DNA of 60,672 nucleotides, filler included, from Dirinaria sp. TL-2023a (taxonomy: Eukaryota), in the NCBI GenBank assembly GCA_051941275.1. It is 6 parts of 6 records of this genome, joined end to end, with 100 filler letters (N's around TTAATTAATTAA, not from the genome) between each part and the next. Parts side by side here need not be neighbours in the genome. Positions count along the whole stretch, not along the records: positions 1 to 10,049 come from JAVEBF010000982.1; 5 more parts are not named here. One strand, given 5' to 3'. Under the pieces are notes generated by a model. It did no database searches, was not told the DNA's origin, and was given only the letters and a program-made list of their open reading frames with translations. Below are positions 1-56,235 of the stretch, piece by piece (the stretch's first letter is position 1; the number at the start of each line of letters is the position of its first letter). The translations under genes and the position numbers were made by a program.

Positions 1-1601
1 ATTCTGTACAGCCTCGGCGCTTGCATACCAGATGCGCTGCTAGCGTCCTACCGAGGGCCGGGGTATGGGATGGCTATTCGCGAAAATGATAATGTGTCGA
101 CGGAACCGGAATATCAAGCGTCGCATTCTTCTACCGCTGCACCGTTCTTCGTCATCTCCGCGTCTAGATCTAGCCACTCATCTCGGGATGAGCCCACCAT
201 ATCGTGTCCACTATTTCATTGTTCTCTACTTGCGGCAGACGAGGGCGAGCTGATTGCCATACTCGAGATCGAGATCTATCTCTGAACGCACCGACTACTC
301 GAACTAAAATATCACACGCAACTCCTCGCCCGAGGGTGCGGTCGCTTTTAACCTCACAGTGAACGGTATCTTCAGTCTTCTTTTACGAACAACGATCCGA
401 AAATATTTATGTGTTCACTTTTTAAATTGCCAAGTCGTGGAATTTGGCCTCGAGTATCAATGCATCCGCGTTTGAATGTACCATGGTAGTGCCTTTTGGC
501 GTAGGCAGCTGTCTCGCATCCGGACATTCTCTAGCTTCATTTCGAGGATAACACCGGCTTTGCCGTTGACTGGCGATTCTCACCTATATAAAGTGGCAGA
601 ATATCCCACCCGAGTTAAGTTGGATGATCCAATTTCGAAAGAGATTATGAAAAGAGTGCCTGCATCAGAGCCATCCGCGTGATGCAATAGTGAGTAAAGC
701 GCCAAAACTTCAATAACATCAAACCCCCTTTCGAGGTGTAGAAGTACTCACCAATTACCATCCTTGAATACTTTAATTAGTTCCAGGACGGCTATCCTAA
801 GGTTCTAGGCCAAGGTGCCGCAAGATGAAAGTTGAGTTCCAAGCTTTTCACGGACAATCTCTTTCCTTGGGTTCACGTAGTCTTTTTCAATTTTCTCCCT
901 GCATCCAACTCTCATCGGACTGCAGAATTCTAGCGTCAAAAGCCGTCCTCACATCTTCGTGTACAGCAGATCCTAAGTCTCCTGGCTTGACACCCAATTA
1001 TCCATTCGCCCTTCTGAGCATTCTTACTCTCAGATCAACATTGATTATACTCGAGTTATTTCAAGTCTAGGGAGCGATCTATGGTTCGTTTGGGAAAGTA
1101 TTACCGCTCGTTCGGCGCAAGCCTGCCGAGTAGCAACTTCTTGCTTCACTACCCAATCCTTTCCTAATGTGTTGATTAATTCTCATTCTGTTCCGGAAGT
1201 GACGATATGTTGCTCAGTTATGCTTCACTCATTACTGGCGATTACTAGAGTTTATTGTCCCTTCGATCCCTACCTTGCGCTGCTAATGATCTCAAGTCTA
1301 CATTGAGATCTACTTTACCCGTTTTCCTTGTTGTATCTTAGGCCTCAAACAATGGCTCTTTGTTCGAATAAGTATACACAAGTGTTTAGTTCAAGCCTAG
1401 CAAGACAGGATTTGTTACAATGCTATTGTCTCCAGGTTCTTTGTCACCCCTTGTGGAAGTGATGGCCTTGTTCGGCTCTCACACATTTAAGGCGCGCAGT
1501 ATCTAGAGATATCTATATCATCGTTCTTGCATTCACTGTCCTCGACAATACTATATATCCATTATACCGAAATTCCAGCATCTTGCGATAATCTGCGAAC
1601 T

Positions 1602-3380
1602 ATGTCAGGCTTTGGAGGCGAACAAGTCAAGTCTCAGGAGCAGGCCTCCACAACAATGGATTTCGAGACAATGGATTTTGACAATCCATTCAACTCCGAG
1701 GAATGCATGGCTGATCTGCTGAGTGAGGATTATCTATACGCACATCCGTTCAGTAACTTTGACACCGGGATTCCGTACATTGACGCACAAGCGCCAATCG
1801 ACCAGTTTCCAGACCAATTATCCTGGCCCGACTCCAACTCACCTCAGGACAATGTCTTCGCTGAAGCATCTCAGTTTGGGGCCAACGAGACCTTCGCACC
1901 AGCAAACGATGATGCCAGTTACTATCCGCCAATTCCAATGCTAGACTCGATCACTCAACCTTACCACCTGCCAACACAACCTCTGTTTGATGTTCCACCA
2001 ATGCCTGGTATGCCCCAAGATCAACTTGCTCAGTACTATGCTGCTGCTGCCAAGTACTATGCCGACAAGGCACGAGAATTTGGACCTGTGACGGAGTCGA
2101 ACGGCCATGTATCAGGTGAAGTATCTGAAATCACAAACTCTACTGGAAGGGAAGCTCAAAGCAGTCAGGTCTCGATGGAAGTAGACGATAAGGGGGCAAC
2201 TGCGAAAGTTCTATCGGCGCCTGCCTTTCAACGACTTCCCAAGCGGAAACCGGCTTCCAACCCTGCAGCTAACGCTCGTGTCATGCAGGAGACTTTGACC
2301 AATTCAGGACTTCAGAGGTTCTCTAAGACCAACCCTGAGAATTTGAAAAGCCGAACTAGGAAGATCCTTGAATACGACCCAAGAGCAGTCTACAAAGAGA
2401 ACCGCGCTGAACCATTCGAGAACTGGGGCAACTGTTTCGGCTACACGATGGATTGTGAATTGCTTCCAGGGATGGCCTTTACCGTCGAGGAGATGAACCA
2501 ATATTTCTTCGCGCACCCTAGAGGTTTTCGAATGTGGATCCAGCGCAACCCTTCTGACTCCAAGCGCCGATATGGGCATTCCGCATCTGCCCGCTGCCGA
2601 ATCAAGGACTGTCCCGCCGACTACCGACTCATCGGCCAAGCACAGTACCGCGTCGCCTTCGACGAGCGCTATCAAGAGACTAACTACGACCCCATGCATT
2701 GCGCAATGTACTGCCACCTCTTCTGCCTCGAGAAGTTCTTCGACTTCCCAGCCCTCTGCGCCCAGCTGGACGTGCGGGCCGAAGACAGAGAACTTCCCAA
2801 AGAACCGGCTGGACGCAACCGGATGCTGTTCTCCACCGAAGAAGAAAAGGAGATCGCTCAAGAATTCATCTCCGCCTGTCAGCATGACAAAGTACCCGCT
2901 TCTTATCCTCGGGACGGAACGCATCACGGATCGCTGACGCACATGCTGGCTCTGAAGAAAGTCGAGCTGGAGCCGAAGCGTATCAGTGAGGCAAGGAAAG
3001 AACGCAATGCGCGCTCTACATTCGAAGTCCATCTTGGCGATTTGGAGCTCGAGAACGCCGAGCGCGCGAAAAGTCGTCGTCCGGAGTGGCAGACGCGGCG
3101 CAAGCCTCTGAACTCGCCTTCTTCAGCTTCAGCCCCGAAGCGGAAGCGTGTCGAAACTGATGACGAGGAAGAAGAGGTCGTTGCGCAGCCGGTGCGAAAA
3201 TCAGCTAAGAAGGCGCCGACAACGAAGAAAGGCGGTAGAAAGACTGCTGTACCTAAGTCCCGAAAGCGCCAAGTTGTGGAGTCAAGTGAAGATTCTTCTG
3301 AGGAATCGCTGGAACAGGGTAGTGAGGATGAGGAGTATAGGCCACCTACCCGCAGTCGGACGGTTAATAATCGTAAGTAG
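1602..3380 (+). CDS. Uncharacterised, probably nuclear protein: acidic/Pro/Gln-rich N-terminus, central globular Cys/His domain (possible PARP-type zinc finger), basic and acidic C-terminal tail
   Basis: Single intronless ORF; the first ATG is at 1602 (the track starts at TTG 1527). Central motif SARCRIKDCP...IGQAQYRVAFDE...YCHLFC; NLS-like PKRKR and KSRKR. Confidence 0.75.
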   Translation: MSGFGGEQVKSQEQASTTMDFETMDFDNPFNSEECMADLLSEDYLYAHPFSNFDTGIPYIDAQAPIDQFPDQLSWPDSNSPQDNVFAEASQFGANETFAPANDDASYYPPIPMLDSITQPYHLPTQPLFDVPPMPGMPQDQLAQYYAAAAKYYADKAREFGPVTESNGHVSGEVSEITNSTGREAQSSQVSMEVDDKGATAKVLSAPAFQRLPKRKPASNPAANARVMQETLTNSGLQRFSKTNPENLKSRTRKILEYDPRAVYKENRAEPFENWGNCFGYTMDCELLPGMAFTVEEMNQYFFAHPRGFRMWIQRNPSDSKRRYGHSASARCRIKDCPADYRLIGQAQYRVAFDERYQETNYDPMHCAMYCHLFCLEKFFDFPALCAQLDVRAEDRELPKEPAGRNRMLFSTEEEKEIAQEFISACQHDKVPASYPRDGTHHGSLTHMLALKKVELEPKRISEARKERNARSTFEVHLGDLELENAERAKSRRPEWQTRRKPLNSPSSASAPKRKRVETDDEEEEVVAQPVRKSAKKAPTTKKGGRKTAVPKSRKRQVVESSEDSSEESLEQGSEDEEYRPPTRSRTVNNRK

Positions 3381-4218
3381 GGATCTCCGGCTTGGGTGGT
3401 AATGGATTCTCTCAGCTATAGTCATTATCATGCATATACTCTAATCCATCATTGCTATCTCCACATCTGATCCTCTGTTCTCTCATTCCTTTGTCTCCAT
3501 TCTACACCAGTGATCAAGATTATGTCACCTCACGGAAAATAATAAAATATAAACAAAACCTCTCTAGTACTTTCATAAAATCTTCATATCATACCTACCA
3601 TCCGATATTCCTTACGCATGTTCCTTTCTCTGGTCTTTGCACTGGGCTCATCCTCCAATCCTTCATATACAAAAATGTCAGCCCGCCACCTATCTAAAAC
3701 CAAGAATTACTTCTCACAGACACTCGGTAACAGCGAGCGAAGGTCGAGTCGAAGATAGCGGCTAAAGGCCCAGTCGCATCGGCTAAACGATATCAAATCC
3801 GCTACAAAAAATATCATTCTTAGGTGAAAGACTCGAGATCAGTCACCTGTCGGACCTGAGCGGCCATTTCGATCAAGCAAATACTTTTCCTTCGTCTACC
3901 TCTGGCAGAATATTAAATTTTACTTGTTCGATCGGAAAATCACTCGGCTTTCTCATTGGAAAGAGATGGCAAAGCACAAACAATAACTTCATTCTGCTCA
4001 GCCTGTCACTCTCTGCTGAGCAAATACGTTTCTTTCTTCCTCTGTCAAGAGCGTAAACAATCTCTTCCGCAATCTAAAACTATGAAATATCGGCCTGAAG
4101 AAGAATTCATCTAACTCATGCTCATCTCAGTTATCGCTATCAACTGGATTTCCAAATTGCGGTGCAACAGATGGATACTGCTGCGCAGAGAGGATTGCAA
4201 TCTAATGAGGCTTACGTC

Positions 4219-5500
4219 AAAATTGTAGTCCTTATGATACACTGGAGCAGAAAGCACAAACTCTTATCAAATCGACTGCGCGAGTCGTGAGAACGGTCAT
4301 TCAGCATCATCCATATCATTCTTCAATGTATCTTTTTGATAATCGTTTGGTAAATAATGATGTCTTGATAATTTCACACAGTGGACGGTATTGAATAGTA
4401 CAAGAACCTAGCAAAAGATAACGAAGACTGACGTTAGAATTTTCCACCTTTGCCGCCAATGGGACTTGCAACCTGAAGCATTGGTGATTGGTTATTTCCT
4501 TCGTTAGGAGGGCAACTCAGTTGGGGTATACTCTACTGCCGACTTGACTATTCGTTGAATGACCGTAAAATATGTCTTATTGACTATTTATCTCAGAGCT
4601 CGCAGGGTTTAATACTGATCACAACGAGCAGATGATTAAAGAGCAAAAAAAACCTCGCTGATCTCCCTCACATGCATATTCTTGATCGAATCTACATGGA
4701 TACAGCCGTCAATAGCCGCTGCGAAAGCGGTCTTATCAGGATCGAAGGTAGCGCTATCTCATTAGACGATTACATCAGCCAAAATACTGGCTAGGTCATT
4801 GGTAATCTCGCATATTTCATAATACTGCTTTTTCGACCAGCGAATACGTTGTCATTGGGCAATTTCAATATCAGGCTAAGGATGCTGCCATAATTCGCTA
4901 TTCACCTTCTTTCAAGGAGCGAGGAGAATTTAATTAGTGGCTTGCACCTGCTACTGCAAATTGATCGGCAGCGACATTATTTAAGACCGATTTTGCCTTC
5001 ACTAATGTGTACAGTGATATTAAGACGGAAGGACTTCCTTGTCTCTGCTTCCATGTAAAGGGAATCTAACTCTGCTTTACCCCATCGCTCTGATATAGCG
5101 ATCTCATGTCAGACTTATTACTCAAGCAAAAACCTTCAAGATCAAGTGTAAGACTTTTGTGACAATCCATTAGAAATCTTCTGGGCTCGAAATATAAATA
5201 CCAGCATGGATGCAGCGCTTTAGCTGCTCTTGGATTGAATGAATTGCTTGGACGCGCTTCTTCAATTAGATATCTTCATTGGGATCTTTTACGGAAATGT
5301 TTGAAAATTGAGGTCAAGTTATGCGGGATAAACAAAAGGCCCTTGATGGTACAAGGACGAACTCAATCAATTGAACGAAAAAAGAGCAAGTCATCAGTCG
5401 GACTCGAAGACGAGACAATCCTAGAGACTATGTGAGGGTGTTCGTTTACTCTGTGGCCAATACGTACGACGACAGAAGGATCCTGCGAAGCATCGTGAAG
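4219..5500 (+). pseudogene. Possible heavily decayed NB-ARC/TPR (NLR-like) relic
   Basis: Motif fragments lie in the expected order but in broken frames: KIVVL plus degenerate P-loop-like DNA at 4219-4260, LIDYLSQSSQGLILITTSR at 4576-4632 (compare FLPRSQHGHVVITSR in the contig-2 NLR), and TPR-like GLEDETILETM / VANTYDD at ~5400-5475. Boundaries are approximate. Confidence 0.35.
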
Positions 5501-5676
5501 ATGCTGCTTAAAATGGAGACGCGTTTCGGTCGAGATTTAATCTCCGCTGACGATGAAGGTATTTATGTCACGCATATCAGAGAGTGGGTGTGTTTGGGAG
5601 ATAAACTAGTCCCATACCGCGACAAACAGATTAGTGAGCTGGATCTAAATCCTCTAGAGCCAAACGAGCTGCCTAG

Positions 5677-6240
5677 TCACAGCACCCAACGACTACAAGC
5701 GGAAATCATAGAAATAGTTTGAGGTGGCACTGGTCTGTACTCAGATTCTTCTGGACAACGGGACATGACGAGCGAGGTGCTCCTCTTGGTCACCGTTGTG
5801 TCCGCAAACATACCCTTCTTCCGAACGATTTGCGAGCTTTGGATTGTTGTCTTCAGATCGCTGTCGTTAAAAGTTCACAAGTAAAGATTTTCAAAAATCA
5901 GATGATCTCATCTCATTTCTCACGATCATTTTATTCACTCATCTTTCTTTTCGAAATCATTTTCGTTGTAATTTTGATCAGCATTACTATCCCATTTTCT
6001 GTATCATATGTATTGTTCAATCATATGGTATCGTCGTTGCATTAAAAGATACTGCATGTCTTTGATAAACTGATACATCAAAGGGACGTTCCTGAGTTGA
6101 TTCTCCATGGGGAAACTTTTCGACTAGCTATCGTAGCCAAAACCTATCTTGTTACAAAAGACCGCGCAGCGATCACCGGCATAAAATTCTGCAAGATCTC
6201 TGTCAGGAGACGACCTTGGTGTCGTGTCGTACAGCAGAGT
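5677..6240 (-). pseudogene. Decayed protein-coding sequence of unknown family
   Basis: One minus-strand frame runs from 6123 to 5680 (148 codons) with no TAA/TAG but six TGA. Read as Trp it gives protein-like EQYIWYRKWD...DEWIKWSWEMRWDHLIFENLYLWTFNDSDL. Confidence 0.5.
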
Positions 6241-7091
6241 CTTCCCTTACCTCTTTCTCCTTTTCCTCCCCTAAAGCCTTGGGGTTTAGATCCCAATCAT
6301 TGGGAATTTTTATCTGACTTTGGTACGATGTGGGCTGCGACCCATTTCTCTTATTCCCTTTATTCAAAAAGCTCTTAGCTTTGCCGTGAACGTTAATCTT
6401 TGCTGATTGAGCAACATGGTCCTTTGTGGGAGCTATATCCGAAATTCTCGACCGCTATCTGGAGGCAGTCGGAAATACAACGCAGAGCTTGGCTTTATAC
6501 AATATCAATTGGATGACTTGTTTCTTCACCTCAACAGCCGAAACGACACGATTCAAGACTGTAGAAAATCTCAGCACGGTCGTCACACTCTTTCGTTTTA
6601 CACTTATACTTTATAACACCTTCGAACTCTTACTCTGCTATTTATGCCGACGGTTCAGCAACGAACAGTCATCATTCTTAAGATTTCATAACACAGTGTG
6701 TTCTGTTTTGAGCAAAACAGTTGACTACGACATCAATTGAAAAATCTCTGCGATTGAGATGGATGTCTCATATCATCCAAACAAGCTGTGAACCGCTACC
6801 TCACTAGTTGGGCCACCCATTGCCTCCTCGATCAGAGTCACGGGGAGATAGTCACAAAGGGGTTAAGCCCGGTTCCCAGACTATGCATGTCGCCCGAGAG
6901 ACAAGCTTACTGTAGAAAGCCAAACACGGACGAAGAAAATACTCCCAGTAAGGCGAGCAGAGATGATCTTATCTACGGCAGGCTGGCAGAAATAGATGGG
7001 GATCAAAGATTGAAGACTTTCAAGCGTTTGAGACTTGCTCGAGGGATATTCGAATCTCGGCTGGGTCCTCACAGTCGATCATACATATGAT

Positions 7092-7523
7092 CAGGTTTTG
7101 CAGGCCCTCGCAACGCGCCGAATGCTTCCTAGACTGTTTGTTGGAACGGCTATCCCTTTATCCGAAGAATAGCTGCGTACGTGGCGCGCCGGAAACCCCT
7201 ACAACCCCGAAGAAGCGTCCCGCCTGAGTCTCGGCCCCGACCCAACCGACCAGAGCGAGAGGGAGCGAGTCAGTCGCCTGGTGCACGAACAACTCATTTC
7301 CAGGTACACCCACCTGTTTGGGCAACGGTCGCCCCGTTCGGATTGGGGCCACCTCAGCGATCTCACTCTGAAAGACAAACTGCCCGTTGAGGCCGAGTTC
7401 AGGCGCGCTCATGACCTGCAAGACACCCCACAAGTACGTTTAGACAGCAACCTACGAAGCTATTGTCGCAGATCAGAAATGATGTCAAGAGCAAGCCACA
7501 TGAATTCTCTGCACCTACAGTGA
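7092..7523 (+). pseudogene. GC-rich coding-like fragment with one in-frame stop; unknown family
   Basis: The frame of ORF 7281-7523 extends upstream to 7092, interrupted only by TAG at 7170-7172. No recognisable motif. Confidence 0.25.
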
Positions 7524-9300
7524 ATGAATGAAATTCATTCTTTACTCTTATGTGCTTGGTGTACCTTCAGGATGCTAATCTGGACATCAGCGGAATACCC
7601 TCTTATTTCTATCCGTCAGAAATCTTTCTCCAAGTTACGTTTGAGCTTAGATTTGATCACGATGACTTCTCGATGAGCCAGAGGAGACAGAGAATTGACG
7701 CAGCCTTCGCAAAAATGAAGAAGAAATGTCGGATAACAAGCTACTCGGATTTGATCAGTCCATCAGAAGCACCAAGGATCAATAACGAAGACAGAGTATA
7801 TATGATATCGATCCAAAAATCCTCTTCTCAGAGTCAAAGAGCAAACGACGATGAATCTTCATTTTTTCATACACTCATCTAGCTGATTGCGAAATGATGA
7901 AACAAAAACATAACACACAAACGTTTAAAATCAAAACGAGCATCAAACTCAAATAAAAAAAAAACCATTTTCATAATCGCAGATTTTAAATTGTATGACG
8001 AGAGCAGCATCACGAACATATTAAATAACTGGTTTTTGTCTAATTTTCATGTTTGTCGATTGATAAAAAACTAAATGCATTTTCATCACACTCACTCAAT
8101 CGATTTTACGATCGACGAAAAGATTCGCATCAATAAAACAAACAAAAAAAGTACGTCAATTAAAAATTATTATCTCAATGATACATGATATTATGAACGT
8201 GTGAAAGAATATGTTTTTGTTGGCCGCATTATACAATTACAAGCTATATTAGAGAAGGCTTTTGTCTCTGGCACTCCGCATTGAGATATTATTTTGTGCC
8301 GTGCCCTCTCATGATCTTAGTGTGTTTACAACAGGTGTTTCAAGTTCTATAATTTCGTTCTTGACACAGAGAAATGTCAAAGAGGCTGATGAAACAAGTC
8401 TGCAGCGCCTTGCGGGATCTTTTTTGATGGAAAAACAAACTTCAATGTCATCAATTTTATCAACGTTTTCATTTATCTAGTACGATCCAGAACTCAGATA
8501 TTTGTGAAGATCAATCAGACCCCAATTTTTACTTTATTCCAATTATTGTGTCTTTTCTATCAGCTCTCGAATGATATTTTATTTTGTTTCTTGCAGTTTT
8601 TTTTGATGGGTGCTTAATATTCCAACTGATCATCGGCTTTTCTAGCCGATTTAAAGTATTCATTCTATGAGCTATGCTCTTTGCTATGCCATCTGATATT
8701 CGGGGTGACAGTGACAGTTCAGATGAAGAGAGTAAGGATGCCTCTAAACAATCTTTTCCATACATCTATATACTTGTACGCTACATCGAATCCTTCAGAA
8801 TTTATCAACACAACAACTAATAATCAGGAGAATAAGTTACATCAAGGCGAACGTAGCGGTAATGATATTAAATCTATTTTGTTTCATTCTTTTAACTCCT
8901 TGGATGCCATCTGTTCCCTCAGCGGTGAAAATTATGTCTTGCATTCTGATCGCCAGCTTGAGAAATTTTTGTAATGAGCTTTTCCAGCCATCGACCTCAA
9001 CTCTTGCCAAGATACAGAGCTTAAAATTTTGATCCCTAGCTAGAACTTCTTTCTGATTGTGGACTAAAAGCGTCCCAACATTCAACCAAGCAAGATTATG
9101 AAGTGGTCAATGCCTTCTAAAAATTATGTACGAGACGCAAAAGCACTGTACGATTCTTAAGACTGGGTCAAGTCGAACGATCGATATCATTGAGAAACAA
9201 TTCAAAAACGCGAATACGCAAATGAAAATGTAGAAGGACATGAAGAGTGCAAGGTTCTGATTGAGTCACGAGAGATACTCACCTATCCACATTTCTAATG

Positions 9301-9600
9301 GATAGGAAATTCGATAAGCTTCATGAGCAGGGTAAAATGGCGTTTACAACGCAGCCAACGCCATTTAGCTATCCAGTTTTCGTCATATGACGAGATACCC
9401 CCGAAGGCCGCAATGTCAGAGCCGGTATAGACATCCGAGGTCTAAACAACATCACGGAAGTGGATACCTACCCTTTGCCTCTACAAGCCGACATCATTGG
9501 CGCAGTAGCTGGTTTCTCGTACAGCTACACCATCGACGCAGTGGGATGGTTCCATTAATTCAGCGTCAAACGCTCGGATAGATATTAGCTCACAGTGATT
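9301..9600 (+). mobile_element. Ty3/Gypsy LTR-retrotransposon reverse transcriptase relic (N-terminal part of RT)
   Basis: Translates DRKFDKLHEQGKMAFTTQPTPFSYPVFVI*RDTPEGRNVRAGIDIRGLNNITEVDTYPLPLQADIIGAVAGFSYSYTIDAVGWFH*FSVKRSDRY*LTVI, the typical fungal Gypsy RT motifs (PVFVV, DxRGLN, YPLP). Three in-frame stops; no YxDD, integrase or LTR seen. Confidence 0.85.
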
Positions 9601-10049
9601 CAAGCAGATTAAAGCTCTTAACTCACAACCTCGTGGTGGCAGCTCGAAGGCTATCCCAGATCTTTAGAATGAGTCGGGTAGTTGATATGGTCGTTTCGGA
9701 TGTAGAATAAGCAGCGATGTCGCTCTATTATACCCTATCACTTGAGGAGCATCAGCAGATTGCTGGTTTAATCCATGAACAAGAGCGCTCGGGAGCGACA
9801 GACGAAAGCAGAATCACACTCACGCTATCTCATAAAAAGAACTCGACAACGCAATACGCGGAATGAATGAAAGAGAAGTTGAAATCAGAAATGAGAAGAC
9901 TGACTAGGAAATTGCTACAGCAAGAGTTCGACATTATCCGCTTTAATAATGCAAATCAAAGAAATGGAACTGCGCGTTCATGCAATCGCAACTACACTGA
10001 CCATGATCATTTTCCGAATCCCCATTGGCACACGAAAATCGATGGAACG

Positions 10050-13863: not shown

Positions 13864-16800
13864 ATGGTAGGTGCCGGTTGCTGCATGACTCGCTTCTGAG
13901 TCTCACTCTCTAGGCTACCTCCAATACTCTGGAGACTACTGCTAAACGATTCGGACTCACCGAAGTCAGCCCTCGCAATAGCAATAGCAACTGTGTCGAC
14001 ATCGTCTTCGTTCATGGCCTGCACGGCCACCCTTATCACACCTGGAAGAGTAAGGAGAATAAGATCTTTTGGCCAGCTGAATTATTGCCTTCCGTGATAG
14101 AGCAGGAGAATGCAAGGATATTACTTTATGGGTACGACGCCGATATAGCCTCATTCACAGATGGCGCATCAAAAGATAAGATACACAATCATGCCGAACA
14201 ACTGGTTGCCGTCTTGTATGCAGATCGGCGAAAACGTGACGCAAATGAGCATCCCATCATCTTTGTCGCTCATTCTTTGGGAGGTCTTATAGTCAAACGC
14301 GCTTTGATTCACTCACGGGAGGTTAGTGGCAATCACACGATCCATCTACGATCCATCTATATTTCGACGTATGGAATACTGTTCCTTGGAACACCACACA
14401 AGGGTTCCGATGTTTCCAAATGGTGCTCTCGATTAGAAGATATCTGTGGCGCTACACTTCCGAGTTCGTCGATCAATACTCAACAATACCCTATAAGCGT
14501 ATTGAAAGCCAACAATGAGACACTTCAGAACATCGACCGTCAATTTGCTCAACTGAGTGACAGATATCATATTTTTTACTTCCACGAAGGGAAACCTACC
14601 AATATTGACGGAAGTTGGCAGTACATTGTTGACGAAGAATCCGCGTCCCCTAATACTGCGGATGTAGAACGTGCAACTATCCAGCAGCCTCATGCTCATA
14701 TGTGTCAATTTGAAAGCAAAAGTGCTCCTGGATTCGATCTGGTGGCGGAAGCAATAGGCCGTTATGCCGTCGAAGCGCTGGAACTGATTAGCTCCCGCTG
14801 GAAAAATGAGCACTCCGAACGACGTCGTGGGCAACATATTCAAGCCGAAGAGCTGCTCCGTGGTACAGTCCACGATATGTTCCAGGAGTCAAGCAACTTA
14901 GATGATCAAGCTATTAACTATAAGAAATCCAGCATTCTGATACCGTCCTACAGCGATACTCGTTCAGAGTCGCAGCCGAAGCGCCATTATATCGTGGAAC
15001 GACAGCGGGTCAAAGACTTTCTTGGACGTGAAGATGAACTTCGAAAGATCTTATTGCACTTCTCAACCGGTTCCACGCAACAGCCCAATGTCTTGGTTTT
15101 GTATGCACTTGGTGGCCAGGGAAAGAGCCAGATCGCACTCGAGTATTGTCAGCGTTGGCGTGAGCAGTACCGTGGCATCTTCTGGGTTAACGCTAGCTCG
15201 GAGGAATTGGCGTTGGAGTCGTATGCCCAGATCGCCAGGGCCTTAAAAAACGACCCTTCTGCGAAATTTGGAGAAGAGACGAATTGATTAGGCTAGTCAA
15301 AGATGATTTGGAGCACTGGAGCGAAAATTGGTTGTTAGTCTTCGATAACTACGACAATCCTGATCAATTTAAAGTGCATAGGTTCCTTCCCAGAAGTAAG
15401 TGTTATGCTATTGGTTGAATCCAGTCAAATAGCTTGTGCGCGTTGTATCAAATGTACTAACCCGACTTCTAGGCCAGCACGGCCATGTAGTTATCACCAG
15501 TCGCCGTAGGGACTTAGGTCGACTAGGCTTTTTGGTGGAGGTTCCCCCAATGGACTCTGAGGAGGGCGTTGGGCTCCTATTACGTGGACACGAGAGCCAG
15601 GACATTCGGGATAATTTTGACACCGCATTGAAGATTGTCCATCGACTCGGCGGTCTAGCATTAGCGATCGATCAGGCCGCAGCATACATTGGTTACAGAC
15701 GCATAGCACTGGATGCATTGGACGAATTTTTGACAGAGTATGATCTACAAAGAAAAAGGATTCTCTCGTATACTCCGGCTCCTTTCTGGGAATACTGTAA
15801 AGTGCCGATTCATCTAGGAGAAGATCGGGATCAAGCCATCAACGCCTTCACAACATGGGAAATGTCGCTCGAACAACTCAATAACGATAAATCCATTGAT
15901 ATGAACAAGGTGACTCGGTTCTTGAGTGTTTCTGCATTTTTTAATCCTACTGGAGTTGAAGAGTGGCTTTTCCGAAACCGCTGGGAAACCGATCAGACGC
16001 AATGGCTAGGCGATTTGGGCGCGACGGACAACGGCGCGAATCATGAAAATTGTTCTGATATGAGTAATGAGCGCACTCGGGACGCAAGGTCAGGATCAGA
16101 TAGGTACGGGAAGAATTATGAGATGACAAGCACAAAACTAGAAAGAAAACTGAATCGGCCGCTCTCTCCGCATTTGAAACTTAAAGGGAAACGGCGTAGC
16201 AAGAATCATAGCCGAGACGGCGATGGCAACAGACCTTCCACCCATTCGTTGGACCGCAAATGGGATTCGATGCATTTCTTGGATATAATTGACAAATTGC
16301 ACAGATTGTCCTTGGTGCAAGATGTTAAAAGGATCGGCCAAGGCGCCTTTTTTTCGCTCCATCCACTGATTCAAGATTGGCTACAACTTCGAGAACAAGC
16401 AAAGTCCCGCCGAGTTCACATAAGGGAGAGTTTAGAGATTGTGGCTTGCAGCGCAAGACTTTACTGCGAGCCCCATCCCACTGGTCTCGATCGAAGAATT
16501 GCGCTTTTGGCCCACATTGATGCATGCCTATCAAATGATGAGCGGCTATCCGAGCCCCAGTATCAAATCGGTAACGAAATAGAAAGTTGCGGTGGCGCCG
16601 ACGAGCTAGTAGAGTTTTATTGTCAGTTTAGTCGTTTTGAGGCGGCAACTATACTCAATAGTAGAAGTCTTAAGACACGAGAAGAAATCTTCGGAGAGAA
16701 ACATCCGGACACGCTATGGACCGCGCATAATCAAGCTGCAATTTTGATGAGCCGCTTCAAGTACCACGAATGTGAGGAGATGCTTCGCCAAACAATGCAA

Positions 16801-17469
16801 TTGGCAGAGAATGGACTTGGAAAGGAGCACCCCTTTACGCTAACGAGCAGGACGTTCTTGGCTGTGATGCTGGGGGCTCAAGGCAAGTACGACAAAGCTG
16901 AGCCAATAATTCGTCAAACCCTGCAACTGCAAGAGAAGGCACTGGGAAAGGAGCATTTAGATACAATACTAAGCATGAGCAACCTAGCGTCGATTCTCGT
17001 AATGCAGAAAAATAATGATGAGGCCGAGAAGCTATTCCATCAAGCATTACAATCAATTCAGAAAACGATGGGAACGGAGCATCGAGATACGCTGAATATC
17101 ATGGATCATTCAAGCAAGATTCTGCTAGCGCAAGACAAATACAATAAAACCGAGATGTTGTTTCGTCAGACTTTGACATTGAGGCAGAAAGTATTGGGAA
17201 GAGAGCATGAAGATACATTGGGGACTATGATAATGCTTGCATCCGTGCTGAAAAATCAAAGGAAGTATGATGAGGCCGAGGTGATATTTCGTCAGACTTT
17301 AACAATGAGGCAGAAAGTGCTGGGAAGAGAGCATGAAGATACGCTGAAAAGTATGAAGAGGCTTGCAATGATTCTGAAAACACAGGGCAAACATGACGAG
17401 GCCGATGAGATGGACCGCGGCAGGCTGGAACTTGAGAACGCAAGACGCACAAAAACTCAAGATGCATAG
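13864..17469 (+). CDS. Fungal NLR-like protein: SesB-like alpha/beta-hydrolase effector + NB-ARC + TPR repeats; frame break at ~15277 (possible pseudogene)
   Basis: ATG 13864, intron 13867-13913, then VDIVFVHGLHG and IFVAHSLGGLIVKRAL (hydrolase). Walker A ALGGQGKS; Walker B WLLVFDNYDNP lies in a different frame. Intron 15396-15472, then GHVVITSR, GGLALAIDQA, LHPLIQDW and ~6 x 42-aa TPRs (LGxEHxDTL). Confidence 0.9.
17161..17346 (+). repeat. Near-identical 126-bp-period TPR-coding repeats
   Basis: tttcgtcagactttgacattgaggcagaaagtattgggaagagagcatgaagataca at 17161 recurs with few substitutions at 17287 (period 126 nt = 42 aa). Confidence 0.9.
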
Positions 17470-19205: not shown

Positions 19206-19687
19206 TTGGCGTGTGCATGTGTGTTGCGAAACCTTGACATTCAAAATTCTTTCTCTCCACTACATATGTATTGATCACTACTTATTATCGTCTATCAATG
19301 TCTTCCTTTTTAACTCGATGCTTCAGGATCAAAATTGCACAAAATCCATCTTTTTCTATCGTCTTTTAACACTCAACGATCTGTCGATTTGACAGTGGCA
19401 CTTTCATAAAGAGTCGGTTCATCGACAGTTCGTGAAAACTTTATTGTGCTAAAATCCCGTTCTTTCGCTAGCTAGCTCTAGAGACGAGCGACTACATTGG
19501 ATCCTGAGACAGCAAAAGATCGAAGATGATTTATTTGATAGATGAAAAATATTGTTGACACTGAACGAGAGTGATGTGATGGCAGTGAAATTTCTCAGAA
19601 AGATAAAAGAGAAAAAAAAAAAGATACCTTGTAGACTGCGTAGAATTTCGAGATGTCAAGGTTTCGCAACACACATGCACACGCCAA
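19206..19687. mobile_element. Non-autonomous foldback / MITE-like element (482 bp) with perfect 35-bp terminal inverted repeats
   Basis: ttggcgtgtgcatgtgtgttgcgaaaccttgacat (19206-19240) is the exact reverse complement of 19653-19687. AT-rich non-coding interior; no clear target-site duplication. Confidence 0.7.
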
Positions 19688-50799: not shown

Positions 50800-51153
50800 G
50801 GATTGAAATTGTATTTGATTTGATTTGATTTTGCTGGGGAGATGCTGCAATGTCTATGTTAAAATCAACAATAAATACCAGACCGACGAGGGAGGTTTTC
50901 TTTTTCCCCTTCGGTCGCCTGGTATTCGCATGCATGCCCTTCTTCTAAAAGAACCAAAAAAATCTCTAAGACCGCCCGACCAACCCACCAATCAGTAACA
51001 TGTAATCTAGCCGGGGAAAAAAAGGGGGGGAAAGTACATGTAGAGTAGTACCCAGCGCCCTGAATAAAAGCACCTGAACTATAAGGTAGGTACCGATCAA
51101 TCCGTCCCATTTCTCCCCATGTATCTTACGAAATGGATCAGGAAAAAAAAATA

Positions 51154-52799
51154 TCATCCGCTGAACTCCTTGACTGCTCCCTTCTCCTTTCCCGGCACTA
51201 ATGCCAAGGGCACGATACCGCTGACGTGCATATCGGGGCCGTACACGTGCATGTTGAGCTTCAGCTCTTCGCCGACGGCTTTGATGTTCTTCAGGCCTTC
51301 CTGGTAATTGGGCCCGGCGCGACGGACCCAGATCTGGACCTTGTGCTCGATCAAGGTCGGCGCGAACTCCCGCAGGGCACGGATGACACCTTTGAATGTG
51401 GACGCAACCTATTTCTCCTGTTAGCCCCGTGTTCTGCGGGATTTCCGGATAGAACGACTGAATGAATCGGATACGTACATTGGTGAAGTTGGCAATACCT
51501 CCGCCGATGAACAGGACTTTGCCGTCAGGGTGCGTTGGAGCACGCAGCATGAGATCCAGCACCGTACGAGCGTAGTAGTATGTTTGTGTTTCCGTCGGTG
51601 CACCGGAGTATTCTCCGTAATTGGCAAGTTCGTCGGCAAAGCCAGCAGAAGCAATAGCATCGGCGTAAACGACGGACGCACCGCCACCAGCAACAAGTGT
51701 CCATACACGGCCTTTGGCGTTCAAGACGGTGAGCTTTAAAGATGCGCCGGTTTTCGCGTCTAATTCAGCGATGTACTGCTCTTCTTTGCTCATTTCCCGT
51801 CCGAAAGGTGCCGGGAATTCCATAGGTGGTCCTGCATCAATGCTGACCTTGGACTCGGTCTTCGCTCCGGGGATTCCGAGGGCAGCAGGGCTACGAGCCA
51901 CGGCCCATTTGACGCCACATTCGAACTCAGCGGTTTGGTCAAGCTTGGCAGCCAAATCCAGGAAATGAACCTCAGCCGAAGTGCCAACGGAGTTTGGAAT
52001 GACGACAAGAGGGTTGATTTCCAGATATGTAAATTGGCAGTCGACGTAAACCGCATATAGTCGAGTGATAAAGTCCACCAAAACGTTGTGGACGCCCTTG
52101 GGTACTTTCTTTAGCAGTGTTGATGCGAGCTCTTCGTTCGAAGGGTATTCGGAGAGATCGACGGGAATGAGGATCTTCTCGGCTTTGGCATCAACATCGC
52201 CCACATCGACACCTCCTTCGTGGGTAAAGAGAATCCAGTCACCCTGTGGAGGAATTAGCCATGCCCCGGAACTCCTCTGCAGCTCAACAATGCTGCCCCG
52301 CAGCGGCTCCAGTGCGCATGCATTCTTGGCAGGGTTCTTGTGAGTTGTTCCTACTTACATCTCGGACAGAATTAATGTTGATGTAGTATTCTGTATCTTG
52401 AGGATGCGGGACAAATGGCTCGACGAGAAATTGTCTGAGCACACCCGAGACGGTTTCGACCTGTTGCTGTTTTCCAGCTCGGGCCTCGATCCATGCTCTT
52501 GATTCGGCCCACGTTTTATTCAGAGCAAGCAAGCCGCTCTTGCCGCGACGCTTGATCAATTGGTCGGGCTTTGCGACGAATTTGGCGTCTGGCGCAAGAA
52601 GCCATGGATAGGTCGACTCCGCTTGATCCAAGACCGAGGCAGGGGAAGCATCTTCGGGAAAATAGAGAGAGGCGAGCTTTGAAGGAGGGTTGTGCATGGA
52701 TGTAGCGGGCAACGGCGACGGTTTAATAACAGGAGCTCTGGTCAGGTGATAATTGAGGATGGCCTTGCCATCAGCCTCGAGGATTGATTTGGCGGCCAT
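51154..52799 (-). CDS. ACL2: ATP-citrate lyase, small subunit (homologous to the N-terminal half of animal ACLY)
   Basis: [83 protein letters not shown]; two introns. Confidence 0.97.
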
Positions 52800-53978
52800 T
52801 GCGGTGTGAGGATATGAAGTTTCGGAGCGTTAGCAAGCAGGTATGATGCTAGATTGTGTGTTAGTTAACAAAGAGGTGTACCAGTTGAATTCGTCCATCG
52901 ATCCAGTACCTACCTACCAGTTGAGTCCACTCGCAAGTTCGACCAGACCGACCAGAGGAAAATACTGCGCTGCTGTGAGGAGGATTAGAAGGAGTCGAAA
53001 GAAAAGTTGTGCGAGTACATACGGTAAGTGTTGAGTTAGTGAGCTCGGCCAGTTTGTCTTACTCAGGCGTGTCAATCAGTGTGGGTTGCCTTAGCTTTCC
53101 TTGGCTCCCTGCGAACTCTGAACCCTTCGAACCTTCCCACTCCGTTGAATTGGTTCAGGTTCGGTGCTCGGGCGCCCAGAGAATACTTTGACACGCTAAC
53201 CGTAGATCCCGGCCGAATTACCCCGGTCCCGAGGGATCACCGCTGACAGTTTACTCGGATTCCGAACTTGGCACAAGGTAAGGTAATTGATGGACGGTAC
53301 GATGTGGAGATTATGGACTGAGATCATGACATTGGGACAAGATTGAATCAACTAAACACGCGCGCTCTACTTATCCTCTTGACAAATTACAACTGTACGT
53401 GGTCCTAGTAATTCTGCATTCGAGCCTGGAATAAGTAATAATGATGATGAGGACGACCGAGTAATGCGCCGGGCCGACCGAACTCCATCCGGCTAGTTTA
53501 GCGCTTAGTGTTCCCCAGCTTACAGCTTACTACTGCTCAACATAATTTAATGTAAGCTGCGTGCAAAGTGCAAAGTGCAAGAGCAATCAAAGGAACCCCC
53601 CCCCAGTTACAAGAAATTCCCTTTCTCCATCAGAGAGGTCTGTGAACTCGTCCTTCTTTGAACAACCCCGCTGCTGCACGACACTTTCCTTTCCATACCT
53701 CCTCCGTTTTCCCCCCCACCAACTGATACACATTTCTCGTTCAAGGCGGGCTGAAAAATTCGCTATCCCGAGTCTAAGCCACCTATACTCCCCGTACCCA
53801 ATCGAACCGCTCCCCAACCGGAGCTGCAGGTCTCGGTAAGCTTTCCAGAGAATCTCTCCGGACAAGCTATCTAGTACACCTTTGCCGTACGTGAGTGCTC
53901 CGTATTCACCTCTCTTGTTCCTGTTCCTGTTCCGACCAGCAGCTCATCCCTTTCCTCGTCCGCCCCTTGCTGACCATC

Positions 53979-56235
53979 ATGCCTTCAGCGGAACCACTCA
54001 CAAACGGCCATACCAGCGCCTTGACTAACGGCGAGAAGATGGCGTCTACACAAGTCCCAGTGAATGCCAATGCGGTCAGCGGTGCCCCTAACGGCGTCAA
54101 TGGTACGAAGGCCTCCACTGCCAATGACAGAATACAACGCTTCTCAGCTCCAAGCCGATCCCTGAGCCCACGCCCTGAACATACCCTTTTCCATAATAAA
54201 ACACGATGCTTTGTCTAGTAAGGCTCCAGTCGCCGACGATTTGGAAATGGGGGAGACTAATAGCTTGATTGAAGTGGACTGCAACCTCGCGCTGTCCAGG
54301 GTATGCTGGACTTCGACTTTATCTGCAAGCGCAAGACTCCGTCAGTGGCCGGCATTATCTACACTTTCGGGGGCCAGTTCGTGAGCAAAATGTACGAAGA
54401 ATAATCTTATGGTTAGGCCAAGAAGCTGACTTCCTTTCTACCAGGTATTGGGGAACCAGCGAGACCCTATTGCCGGTATACCAGGATGTCCAGAAAGCCA
54501 TGGACAAGCATGACGACGTTGACACAGTCGTCAACTTCGCCTCTTCTCGTAGCGTTTACAGCTCGACCATGGAACTCATGAACTATCCGCAAATCAAATC
54601 CATTGCAATTATCGCCGAAGGTGTCCCTGAAAGACGAGCTCGCGAGATCCTGCATGTCGCAAGTCAGCGAAACATTACAATCATTGGGCCCGCCACTGTT
54701 GGAGGTATCAAGCCTGGGTCCTTCAAGATCGGTAATACCGGAGGAATGATGGACAATATTGTGGCTTCGAAGCTCTACCGTAAGGGATCTGTCGGTTACG
54801 TGTCGAAGTCAGGCGGTATGTCAAATGAACTCAATAACATTATCTCCAATACGACGGATGGTGTCTATGAAGGCGTAGCTATTGGCGGAGACCGCTATCC
54901 CGGCACAACCTTCATTGATCACATTTTGCGGTATCAGGCGGACCCAGAGTGCAAACTGCTGTTACTGCTTGGTGAGGTTGGTGGCGTAGAAGAATACCGC
55001 GTCATTGAGGCTGTCAAGAATGGTACCGTCACCAAACCTATAGTGGCATGGGCAATTGGGACATGTGCCAGCATGTTCAAGACAGAGGTCCAATTCGGCC
55101 ACGCTGGTTCTTTTGCGAACTCTCAACTTGAGACGGCTGCGATGAAGAACAAGAAGATGAGAGAGGCGGGCATTTATGTGCCCGACACTTTCGAAGACAT
55201 GCCCAGTCTGCTCGAGAAGGTCTACAAAGGCCTCGTCGAGAAGGGCACCATTAAACCTCAGCCAGAGCCCGTTCCGCCCAAAATTCCGATTGACTACTCT
55301 TGGGCACAAGAGCTTGGCCTCATTCGAAAGCCCGCAGCGTTCATCTCCACCATCTCCGATGACCGTGGCCAAGAGCTGTTGTATGCTGGTATGCCGATCT
55401 CGGATGTTTTTAAAGAGGAGATTGGCATTGGTGGTGTTATGTCTTTACTCTGGTTCCGACGGCGACTTCCGGATTATGCTAGCCGCTTCCTAGAGATGGT
55501 CCTCATGTTGACTGCTGACCATGGTCCTGCCGTGTCAGGTGCAATGAATACGATCATTACGACCCGAGCAGGAAAGGATTTGATCAGCGCTCTGGTGTCT
55601 GGTCTGCTCACTATTGGCTCAAGATTCGGTGGTGCTCTGGACGGTGCTGCGGAAGAGTTCACCAAAGCTTTCGATAAGGGTCTTAGCCCTCGCAATTTCG
55701 TTGATGGCATGAGGAAAGAGAACAAATTAAGTAAGCTATATTGTATATCATGCTCGAATTTTACACACAAACTGATTCTGTCCTAGTTCCCGGTATTGGC
55801 CATAGGGTCAAATCCCGGAACAACCCCGACCTCCGGGTTGAGCTAGTCAAAGAATTCGTTCACAAGCGCTTCCCGAGCACCAAGATGCTGGATTATGCCA
55901 TTGCGGTTGAGACTGTTACAACATCTAAGAAGGACAACCTTATCCTCAACGTTGATGGCTGTGTTGCAGTCTGCTTCGTCGACCTGATGCGGAGCTGCGG
56001 AGCCTTCAGCCCGGAGGAGGCGGAGGACTACATGAACATGGGTGTCCTCAATGGCTTGTTCGTTCTCGGAAGAAGCATTGGTTTGATTGCACACTACCTT
56101 GACCAGAAGCGCCTGAGGACCGGTCTCTATAGGCATCCATGGGACGACATCACATACCTGTTGCCCAGCCTCGCGCAAGCAGGCGCTGCAGGCGCTCCAG
56201 GCAATGAGGGTAGAGTCGAGGTCAGTGTAGGCTAA
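53979..56235 (+). CDS. ACL1: ATP-citrate lyase, large subunit (homologous to the C-terminal half of animal ACLY)
   Basis: [46 protein letters not shown] (phospho-His), [29 protein letters not shown]; three introns. Divergent from ACL2, as is usual in filamentous ascomycetes. Confidence 0.97.

Follow-up and report, generated by a model that had tools for sequence, protein, structure and literature searches.

What process removes nearly all CC and GG dinucleotides from a stretch of DNA while leaving CpG and CpA in place? This question is raised by positions 7861-8220 of the window, i.e. the whole 60,672-nt stretch of DNA from Dirinaria sp. TL-2023a analysed here, which consists of six contigs of about 10 kb each with N linkers between them and whose bases 1-10049 are contig C982. 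A sequence-only reading had counted one CC, one GG and 14 CG in this patch, with CA and TG abundant, and the count was borne out (33 CA, 19 TG and 24 TA at 28% GC). Mononucleotide shuffles predict 14.2 CC plus GG, and two or fewer were reached in 0 of 20,000 of them; among the 200-nt windows of the 60 kb, the focal patch has the fewest CC/GG. Delimited as a feature, it covers 7822..8222 (unstranded), where just two CC/GG pairs remain, CpG and CpA are retained and TpA is low. Under a broader Poisson null with correction for 168 windows, p rises to ~0.06, and composition alone is therefore borderline, so that the focal case is carried by homology and the genome-wide pattern. DNA searches of its own genome with the focal stretch returned only the stretch itself, and the sole usable DNA alignment of the locus (59% identity over 102 nt) contains no informative CC site. 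As no copy is near enough for polarisation at the DNA level, the case for the focal locus is made from its composition and from protein comparison at ~38% identity.

The genes in the window are fungal, and they come from a fragmentary assembly of 27.7 Mb in 3,105 contigs. A Vps35 fragment shares 86% identity with Heterodermia speciosa and 81-84% with Lepraria, Stereocaulon, Varicellaria, Bachmanniomyces and Trapelia, and in a one-gene tree of 25 rows the host lies within an 11-row clade together with Heterodermia, at a support of 93/87 (not starred). To judge from these sequences, the host is a lichen-forming Lecanoromycete, which we take, from Vps35 as a single gene, to be positioned possibly near Caliciales. 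Unrelated neighbours in the window include a gene at 13914-17469 that combines an alpha/beta-hydrolase, an ATPase and TPR repeats (126-nt repeats, 75% identity, CC not erased), a layout that we would label NLR-like; an open frame of 629 codons at 1491-3380 without a Pfam match; and, at 50969-55783, both ATP-citrate lyase subunit genes, divergent on opposite strands, which is an ordinary arrangement in filamentous ascomycetes. Rfam gave no match anywhere in the window.

Is the loss of CC simply a property of AT-rich DNA in this genome? Our background control drew on larger contigs, from which 30 stretches totalling 283,634 nt were chosen mostly by contig rank. A CC observed/expected ratio (o/e) of 0.4 or less was found in 8 of its 1,415 200-nt windows, whereas 16 of the 30 reverse transcriptase (RT) loci described below fall under 0.3, i.e. 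repeats and background do differ in the way predicted by the earlier reading. Equal depletion in AT-rich background DNA was not found: the 34 windows with a GC content of at most 0.38 pool to a CC o/e of 0.88, with only four windows at or below 0.33, which leaves the matched control thin for a focal GC of 0.28. One erased background patch (L053, 950-1450, on contig C100) is homologous to a pseudogene piece in the window (7065..7262, + strand), which is itself GC-rich and CC-normal; three further erased background patches could be assigned no homolog. CC-erased background at L053 8350-8650 and L102 9550-10000 has no match in the ~0.68 Mb of DNA compared.

Standard RIP indices indeed miss the pattern, as had been proposed. 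With thresholds of at least 0.89 for TpA/ApT and at most 1.03 for (CpA+TpG)/(ApC+GpT), the focal patch scores 0.53 and 1.37, both on the 'no RIP' side, and the composite RIP index is negative for the focal patch and below zero in all eight erased loci tested. A CpC index, (CC+GG)/(TC+GA), separates erased copies (0.002-0.044) from intact ones (0.75-0.76).

Direction and context of the underlying changes can be read from intact and decayed copies of the same transposon. Two Gypsy elements (L037 and L038), whose pol frames run without a break over 1,313 and 1,315 codons, were used as references for five close pairs, i.e. four of the eight alignments to L037 (those of at least 86% identity, the four dropped having 67-77%) and an in-contig duplicate of L038. 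Over 2,937 nt, these pairs carry 271 C>T/G>A changes as against seven in the reverse direction and four transversions (278 transitions versus 4 transversions). Changes were found at 218 of 357 CpC sites (61%), 34 of 374 CpT sites (9%), 18 of 352 CpA sites (5%) and one of 294 CpG sites (0.3%), the difference in rate between CpC and CpA having a p of 7e-63; both strands were changed in all five decayed copies. With a looser filter, passed by 13 of 47 alignments that overlap one another, the order stayed the same (365/593, 81/606, 33/531 and 12/544). Sorting C>T changes in aligned transposon copies by their 3' neighbour, the procedure by which the sequence-only reading had proposed to check its idea of a repeat-directed C>T mutator preferring CpC, thus yields CpC>TpC as the dominant change, rather than CpA or CpG, and supports that idea.

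The same alignments reveal which C is hit. Isolated CC became TC in 160 cases, remained unchanged in 56, and turned into TT in eight and CT in two. The 40 isolated CCC became CTC (27), stayed CCC (9) or became TTC (3) or TCC (1), i.e. 4/31 against the even split expected under equal rates (p 3e-5), and from this excess of CTC we conclude that the target motif is C*CD. The 5' base has a small effect, mild for T (TCC 75/103 versus ACC 58/102 and GCC 43/76). The L038 duplicate (contig C1265, 616-1324 versus 6501-7209) repeats 709 nt from the 3' end of the element itself, in CpC-mutated form and directly upstream of the intact Gypsy; there are 45 one-way changes in one copy, 43 of them at CpC, and none in the other. 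Pairing-based RIP usually mutates both partners, and this one-sidedness is compatible with the intact copy having been inserted later, but also with a mechanism that involves no pairing. In the L022/L035 pair, 14 changes on one side face 14 on the other.

How widely is this signature spread over repeat families? Searching the genome with the PF00078 profile produced 32 matches, 30 of which were taken as loci, with a whole-locus CC o/e below 0.3 in 16, of 0.3-0.75 in six and of at least 0.75 in eight. The 16 erased loci have o/e values of 1.44-2.27 for CG, 1.32-1.72 for TC, 0.54-0.76 for TA, 0.87-1.14 for CA and 0.82-1.22 for CT. Stops occur in 28 of the 32 relic loci and are TGA in 127 of 163 cases; opposite Trp, TGA was counted 70 times, TAA eight times and TAG never. 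In diverged LINE pairs, too, CpC is the context with the highest rate. Pairs of which both members are CC-depleted differ mostly at CpT and CpA (CT 56, CA 28, CG 8 and CC 4 for L016/L017; CT 46, CA 26, CG 11 and CC 1 for L013/L021), so that raw counts on old relics would read as CpT RIP; when CC is exhausted, CpT comes next as a target, followed by CpA.

DNA-type repeats are represented by a MITE (termed a foldback in the sequence-only reading) on contig C983 at 19206..19687 (unstranded), with perfect 35-bp terminal inverted repeats; its family numbers some 40 copies (107 matches). The milder loss of CC/GG claimed for its interior (19261-19620) was confirmed, with 10 CC plus GG where shuffles predict 22.8. 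Among 30 copies, pairwise C/T differences (from pairs that are not independent) again put CpC first (0.62, versus 0.31 for CpT, 0.20 for CpG and 0.18 for CpA), and CC o/e is 0.36-0.77 in the interior versus 0.68-1.27 in the flanks. Since the window consists of separate contigs joined by N linkers, this MITE interior and the focal patch are unlinked.

Does the focal patch itself bear this scar? It largely coincides with a decayed reading frame on the + strand (7931..8245), whose 105 codons include no Pro, one Gly, five His and two stops. When the + frame 7571-8263, with stops entered as X, was compared by phmmer with 1.84 billion proteins, six matches emerged (P0172-P0177; best E 1.6e-8), all of them unnamed ENA proteins and all aligned to query residues 121-223, which correspond to the erased patch. 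P0172 and P0177 have an ordinary content of Pro and Gly, whereas P0173-P0176 contain neither of the two and retain His and Gln, resembling the focal frame; at the level of these proteins, a scar like the focal one thus seems to be present in other assemblies as well. Opposite a Trp in both intact-looking homologs, the focal frame has a TGA stop (8186..8188, + strand), the TGG>TGA product of CC>TC on the minus strand. Opposite other conserved residues it reads TCA for Pro (8096), GAA, GAT and AAA for Gly (8117, 8180 and 8147) and AAA for Arg (8135), and it keeps CAT/CAC at 8078, 8084 and 8093 and CGA/CGC at 8057 and 8126. The remaining columns, including a TAA at 8072, depart from the CC>TC rule, as is expected at 38% identity.

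Searched against the genome of the lichen fungus, P0172 has 14 matches at E of 0.1 or less, of which 13 are credible; the one excluded from the family count (L134, E 0.085) lies within a long unrelated frame. Five of the 13 copies (L121, L125, L126, L130 and L133) are CC-poor or lie within erased blocks, and the other eight are not. The focal stretch has no transposase or RT domain and no terminal repeats, and Pfam is blank for it in any frame as well as for its homologs; nothing credible was found by Pfam in six frames of 7500-8800, 5400-6800 and 6700-7800 and in three of 8700-10048. The flanks of family copies contain no transposase and, except for L121/L133, no shared termini or flanks. No longer relative of P0172 emerged from 180 candidates, the ESM Atlas gave no usable match, and a metagenome scan with the family alignment produced 593 pattern matches, none of which was confirmed. 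By its protein matches, we take the focal stretch to be the decayed copy of a coding repeat that is old and dispersed and not shown to be a transposon. RIP pairing in Neurospora needs 400 bp and 80% identity (PMC4943192), for which the family copies are now too diverged, and the partner of the focal copy would therefore be old, lost or unassembled. One focal-family copy (L215, contig C1105, ~4500-6090) is CC-erased upstream and continues downstream into an intact frame of 242 codons, i.e. the erasure has a sharp edge within one gene.

Two further witnesses invoked in the sequence-only reading could not be upheld as independent ones and were dropped. The 150-nt run at 5842..5991 (unstranded) does lack CC/GG entirely between 5843 and 5990 (shuffle p 3.5e-4), but chance alone would produce about 0.9 such windows in the scan, which makes it non-significant after correction; no copy or identity was found, and it is at most a possible trace of RIP. 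The same contig has more short runs without CC/GG, one at 6653-6761, with no copy in the DNA compared, and one at 9793-9860, which falls inside the duplicate described below. The Gypsy RT relic (9283..9585, + strand) does have its TGA in frame at 9388-9390, along with a TAA at 9556, and its CC is not erased; a 95% identical copy, however, has CGG rather than a Trp codon at 9388, so that a GG>GA step is seen, and a Trp origin of the TGA is plausible by inference. Two more distant Gypsy relics also have a stop at this codon. A counter-example is provided by a duplicated stretch (8765..10049, + strand; 1,285 nt with 95% identity to contig C1895), whose differences show no CpC bias (8 of 185 CC sites, 22 transversions) and which may represent either an allelic haplotype or two copies spared by the mutator.

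Beyond this genome, the best 80 of 604 metagenomic Gypsy loci contained no window with a CC o/e below 0.45, which says little about the spread of the signature, since these loci were selected for intact motifs. Among the same 80, one locus (L142) is of the plain CpA type (CA 0.29, TA 1.59) and two (L179 and L207) have CpG-poor windows, so the method does detect other signatures. Two metagenomic loci from other organisms have unusual compositions: L146 (2401-3200, Gypsy) with CC 0.52, CT 1.57 and TC 0.65, i.e. the opposite, CC>CT-like polarity, and L190 (4601-5300) with a milder signature of the like kind (CC 0.45-0.60, CG 1.48, TC 1.41 and TA 0.54).

How does this compare with known systems? 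With the RID-dependent RIP of Neurospora crassa and with RIP in other Pezizomycotina, the process shares massive directional C:G>T:A change that is limited to repeats and affects both strands, sharp edges and dead transposon frames, and a putative RID/Masc1-like methyltransferase is encoded in the genome. In contrast to Neurospora RIP, it acts on CpC (C*CD) instead of CpA, brings no enrichment of TpA, creates TGA stops in place of TAA or TAG, and is missed by CpA indices. RIP in Magnaporthe oryzae, Botrytis cinerea and Sclerotinia sclerotiorum likewise has a non-CpA context in ascomycetes with RID, but there it is CpT with CpA, which here are secondary only; Amselem et al. 2015 describe CpA, CpT and CpG signatures, with no 'CpC' in the accessible text (PMC4352252). 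DIM-2/DIM-5/HP1-dependent RIP is also a repeat-triggered C>T change brought about by a C5 methyltransferase, but is described as having a still stronger CpA preference (Gladyshev and Kleckner, 10.1101/115501), and DIM-2 was not seen here. C>T-eroded transposons and sharp gene/repeat edges are known from lichens, i.e. from Cladonia rangiformis (PMC12542154), Xanthoria (PMC13486527) and Endocarpon pusillum (PMC3897900); as far as their available text goes, lichen reports rest on GC content or CpA-based indices or mention RIP briefly (PMC12542154, PMC13486527, PMC13535494, PMC3897900). The Endocarpon indices are given as 1.47 and 0.70, whereas the erased repeats here fail such indices, and Cladonia repeats are given as 10-20% GC, as against 30-38% for the erased repeats here. 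CpG decay (MIP/Masc2, DNMT5 or the TpCpG type of Microbotryum) resembles our case in the loss of C to T in repeats, and a DNMT5-like gene exists here, but CpG is the least mutated context and over-represented in relics. Both CpA RIP (CpA 18/352 versus CpC 218/357, TA o/e 0.54-0.76) and CpG methylation decay (CpG 1/294, CG o/e 1.44-2.27) are thus ruled out as explanations, in agreement with the earlier statement that neither Neurospora-type RIP, with its CpA preference and TpA gain, nor methyl-C decay, with its CpG loss, gives this pattern.

Candidate enzymes were sought with the PF00145 profile, which has one strong match in the genome, an 866-codon open frame on contig C1379 (E 6.8e-30). This gene, which is cut at the contig end in this assembly, has an invariant PPCQ motif, which like its SPAHT motif is common to six relatives, and its nearest named relative is from Alectoria fallacina (65%). 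From the motifs we take it to be putatively RID/Masc1-like. A weak second match, on contig C712, runs on into an SNF2 frame of 1,657 codons; we presume this gene (L228, 741-8095), with its methyltransferase motifs and SNF2 frame, to be DNMT5-like. In repeats CpG is retained better than any other context, which could be due to protection or simply to exclusion. Of the three homologs that the sequence-only reading had suggested inspecting, RID-like and DNMT5-like genes are thus present, and DIM-2 was not found by PF00145, BAH or RID-relative searches, which in a fragmentary assembly is not proof of its loss; the six long RID-domain relatives share the C1379 motifs. BAH loci number three, two of them confirmed as BAH only.

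Taken together, directionality, context and action on both strands are observed, LTR, LINE and DNA-type repeats are all affected, and genic DNA is spared. The process works like RIP and fails the CpA test of canonical RIP, and we consider it quite likely that the fungus has a repeat-directed C>T mutator of the RIP kind, i.e. a RIP-like defence with an altered target, which also hit the focal patch. Such a mutator would convert the first C of CC, best in C*CD, on both strands, and would act more slowly at CpT and CpA and almost never at CpG; 7822-8222 would have been struck while a near-identical partner copy still existed. As in Neurospora, a RID/Masc1-like methyltransferase may mark C after premeiotic pairing of repeats, with the marked C then becoming T by methylation followed by deamination, or by direct deamination, and the 3' context might be set by the RID-like enzyme or by a partner deaminase. 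The expected outcome would be Trp>TGA, Pro>Ser and Gly>Asp/Glu, with frames killed, GC staying near 30-38% and TpA low. By the same analogy we infer that the process may be RIP proper, i.e. premeiotic and RID-dependent. A further and doubtful, if real, possibility is that the 3'-base preference of RIP is evolvable in a single factor, and that in a DIM-2-free Lecanoromycete lineage C*CD is read by a RID variant or by a partner deaminase. The way in which C is converted to T in RIP is not yet settled, nor is the source of the CpA preference, RID or a separate deaminase; a two-step model is on record (10.1101/115501), and RID catalysis is reported as undetected in vitro (PMC13297926).

Could repeats be hit without pairing? 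Vegetative, heterochromatin-directed CpC methylation by another methyltransferase, e.g. an unassembled DIM-2, followed by slow deamination, would account for the one-sided mutation of the L038 duplicate and for intact and mutated copies side by side in the genome; the fragmentary assembly could hide DIM-2, and Dim2-driven mitotic mutation is reported in Zymoseptoria (PMC8016269). We nevertheless regard this as unlikely, because DIM-2 is absent from two PF00145 searches as well as from the BAH and RID-relative ones, the change of 61% of CpC sites while only four transversions accrued points to bursts, erased patches are small, isolated between genes and sharp-edged, and DIM-2 is reported to prefer CpT in methylation (PMC13297926) and CpA in mutation (10.1101/115501).

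Very unlikely is a dedicated cytidine deaminase, AID/APOBEC-like or of an unknown type, that edits repeat DNA at CC without any methyltransferase. CC is the classical APOBEC3G dinucleotide, but APOBEC3G edits the second C, on one strand of reverse transcripts and in retroelements only, whereas here it is the first C that changes (CC>TC 160 versus CC>CT 2), both strands are affected in every copy and so is the DNA-type MITE, which rules out editing of the APOBEC3G type. For a deaminase speak the preference for CCD over CCC, which points to a protein that recognizes three bases or more, and the two-step model, in which a separate deaminase setting the context has been proposed (10.1101/115501).

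That the focal patch is a mere AT-rich spacer or a chance low-CC window, apart from the mutator, is highly improbable: the scan-corrected Poisson value, a genome search without a DNA-level copy and family copies with no transposase beside them would allow for it, but homologs span exactly the erased patch, the codon changes and retentions in it are of the kind listed above (W>TGA, P>TCA and G>GAA/GAT/AAA, with CAT/CAC and CGA/CGC kept), other family copies lie in CC-erased blocks and AT-rich background keeps CC. Damage by UV, to which dipyrimidines might be subject in a lichen growing in the sun and with which CC and CT as dipyrimidines and the mild effect of a 5' T would agree, is effectively refuted by the context table, because UV mainly mutates a C preceded by a pyrimidine and produces CC>TT, whereas TCA changed in 5/100 and TCG in 1/95, tandem TT arose at 8 of 226 isolated CC, TC is enriched instead of depleted and genic DNA is spared. 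Chance and UV together are hardly more probable than chance by itself.

In the published literature that was searched, we found no report of CpC-dominant RIP, and an earlier case is possible, since Clutterbuck is said to have described varied RIP contexts among 49 ascomycetes in 2011. A CpC index has been defined, with CpC figuring only as one of four possible classes in the text available (PMC2621366), elsewhere CpA is dominant (PMC5737583) or AT-rich regions are characterized by a rise in TpA (PMC4943192), 'CPC' in PMC5602860 is a strain number, and the accessible parts of two further contributions to the RIP literature contain no CpC-dominant case (PMC5555474, PMC5381539). A kingdom-wide survey based on CpA indices and AT-tetramer screens describes RIP-like defences as sharing a CpA preference (PMC12543289).

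A variant occurring in nature in which the order of contexts is nearly reversed (CpC >> CpT > CpA > CpG) provides a handle on the context setter: a gene swap into Neurospora should shift the context if RID decides, and would show which protein mutates. Some lineages thus escape CpA-based indices and AT-tetramer screens, with consequences for what is concluded about genome defence and sexual cycling in lichen fungi. If the 3'-base preference of RIP is indeed evolvable in a single factor, a hidden class of fungi that are scored 'RIP-negative' by CpA indices would have an active repeat defence.
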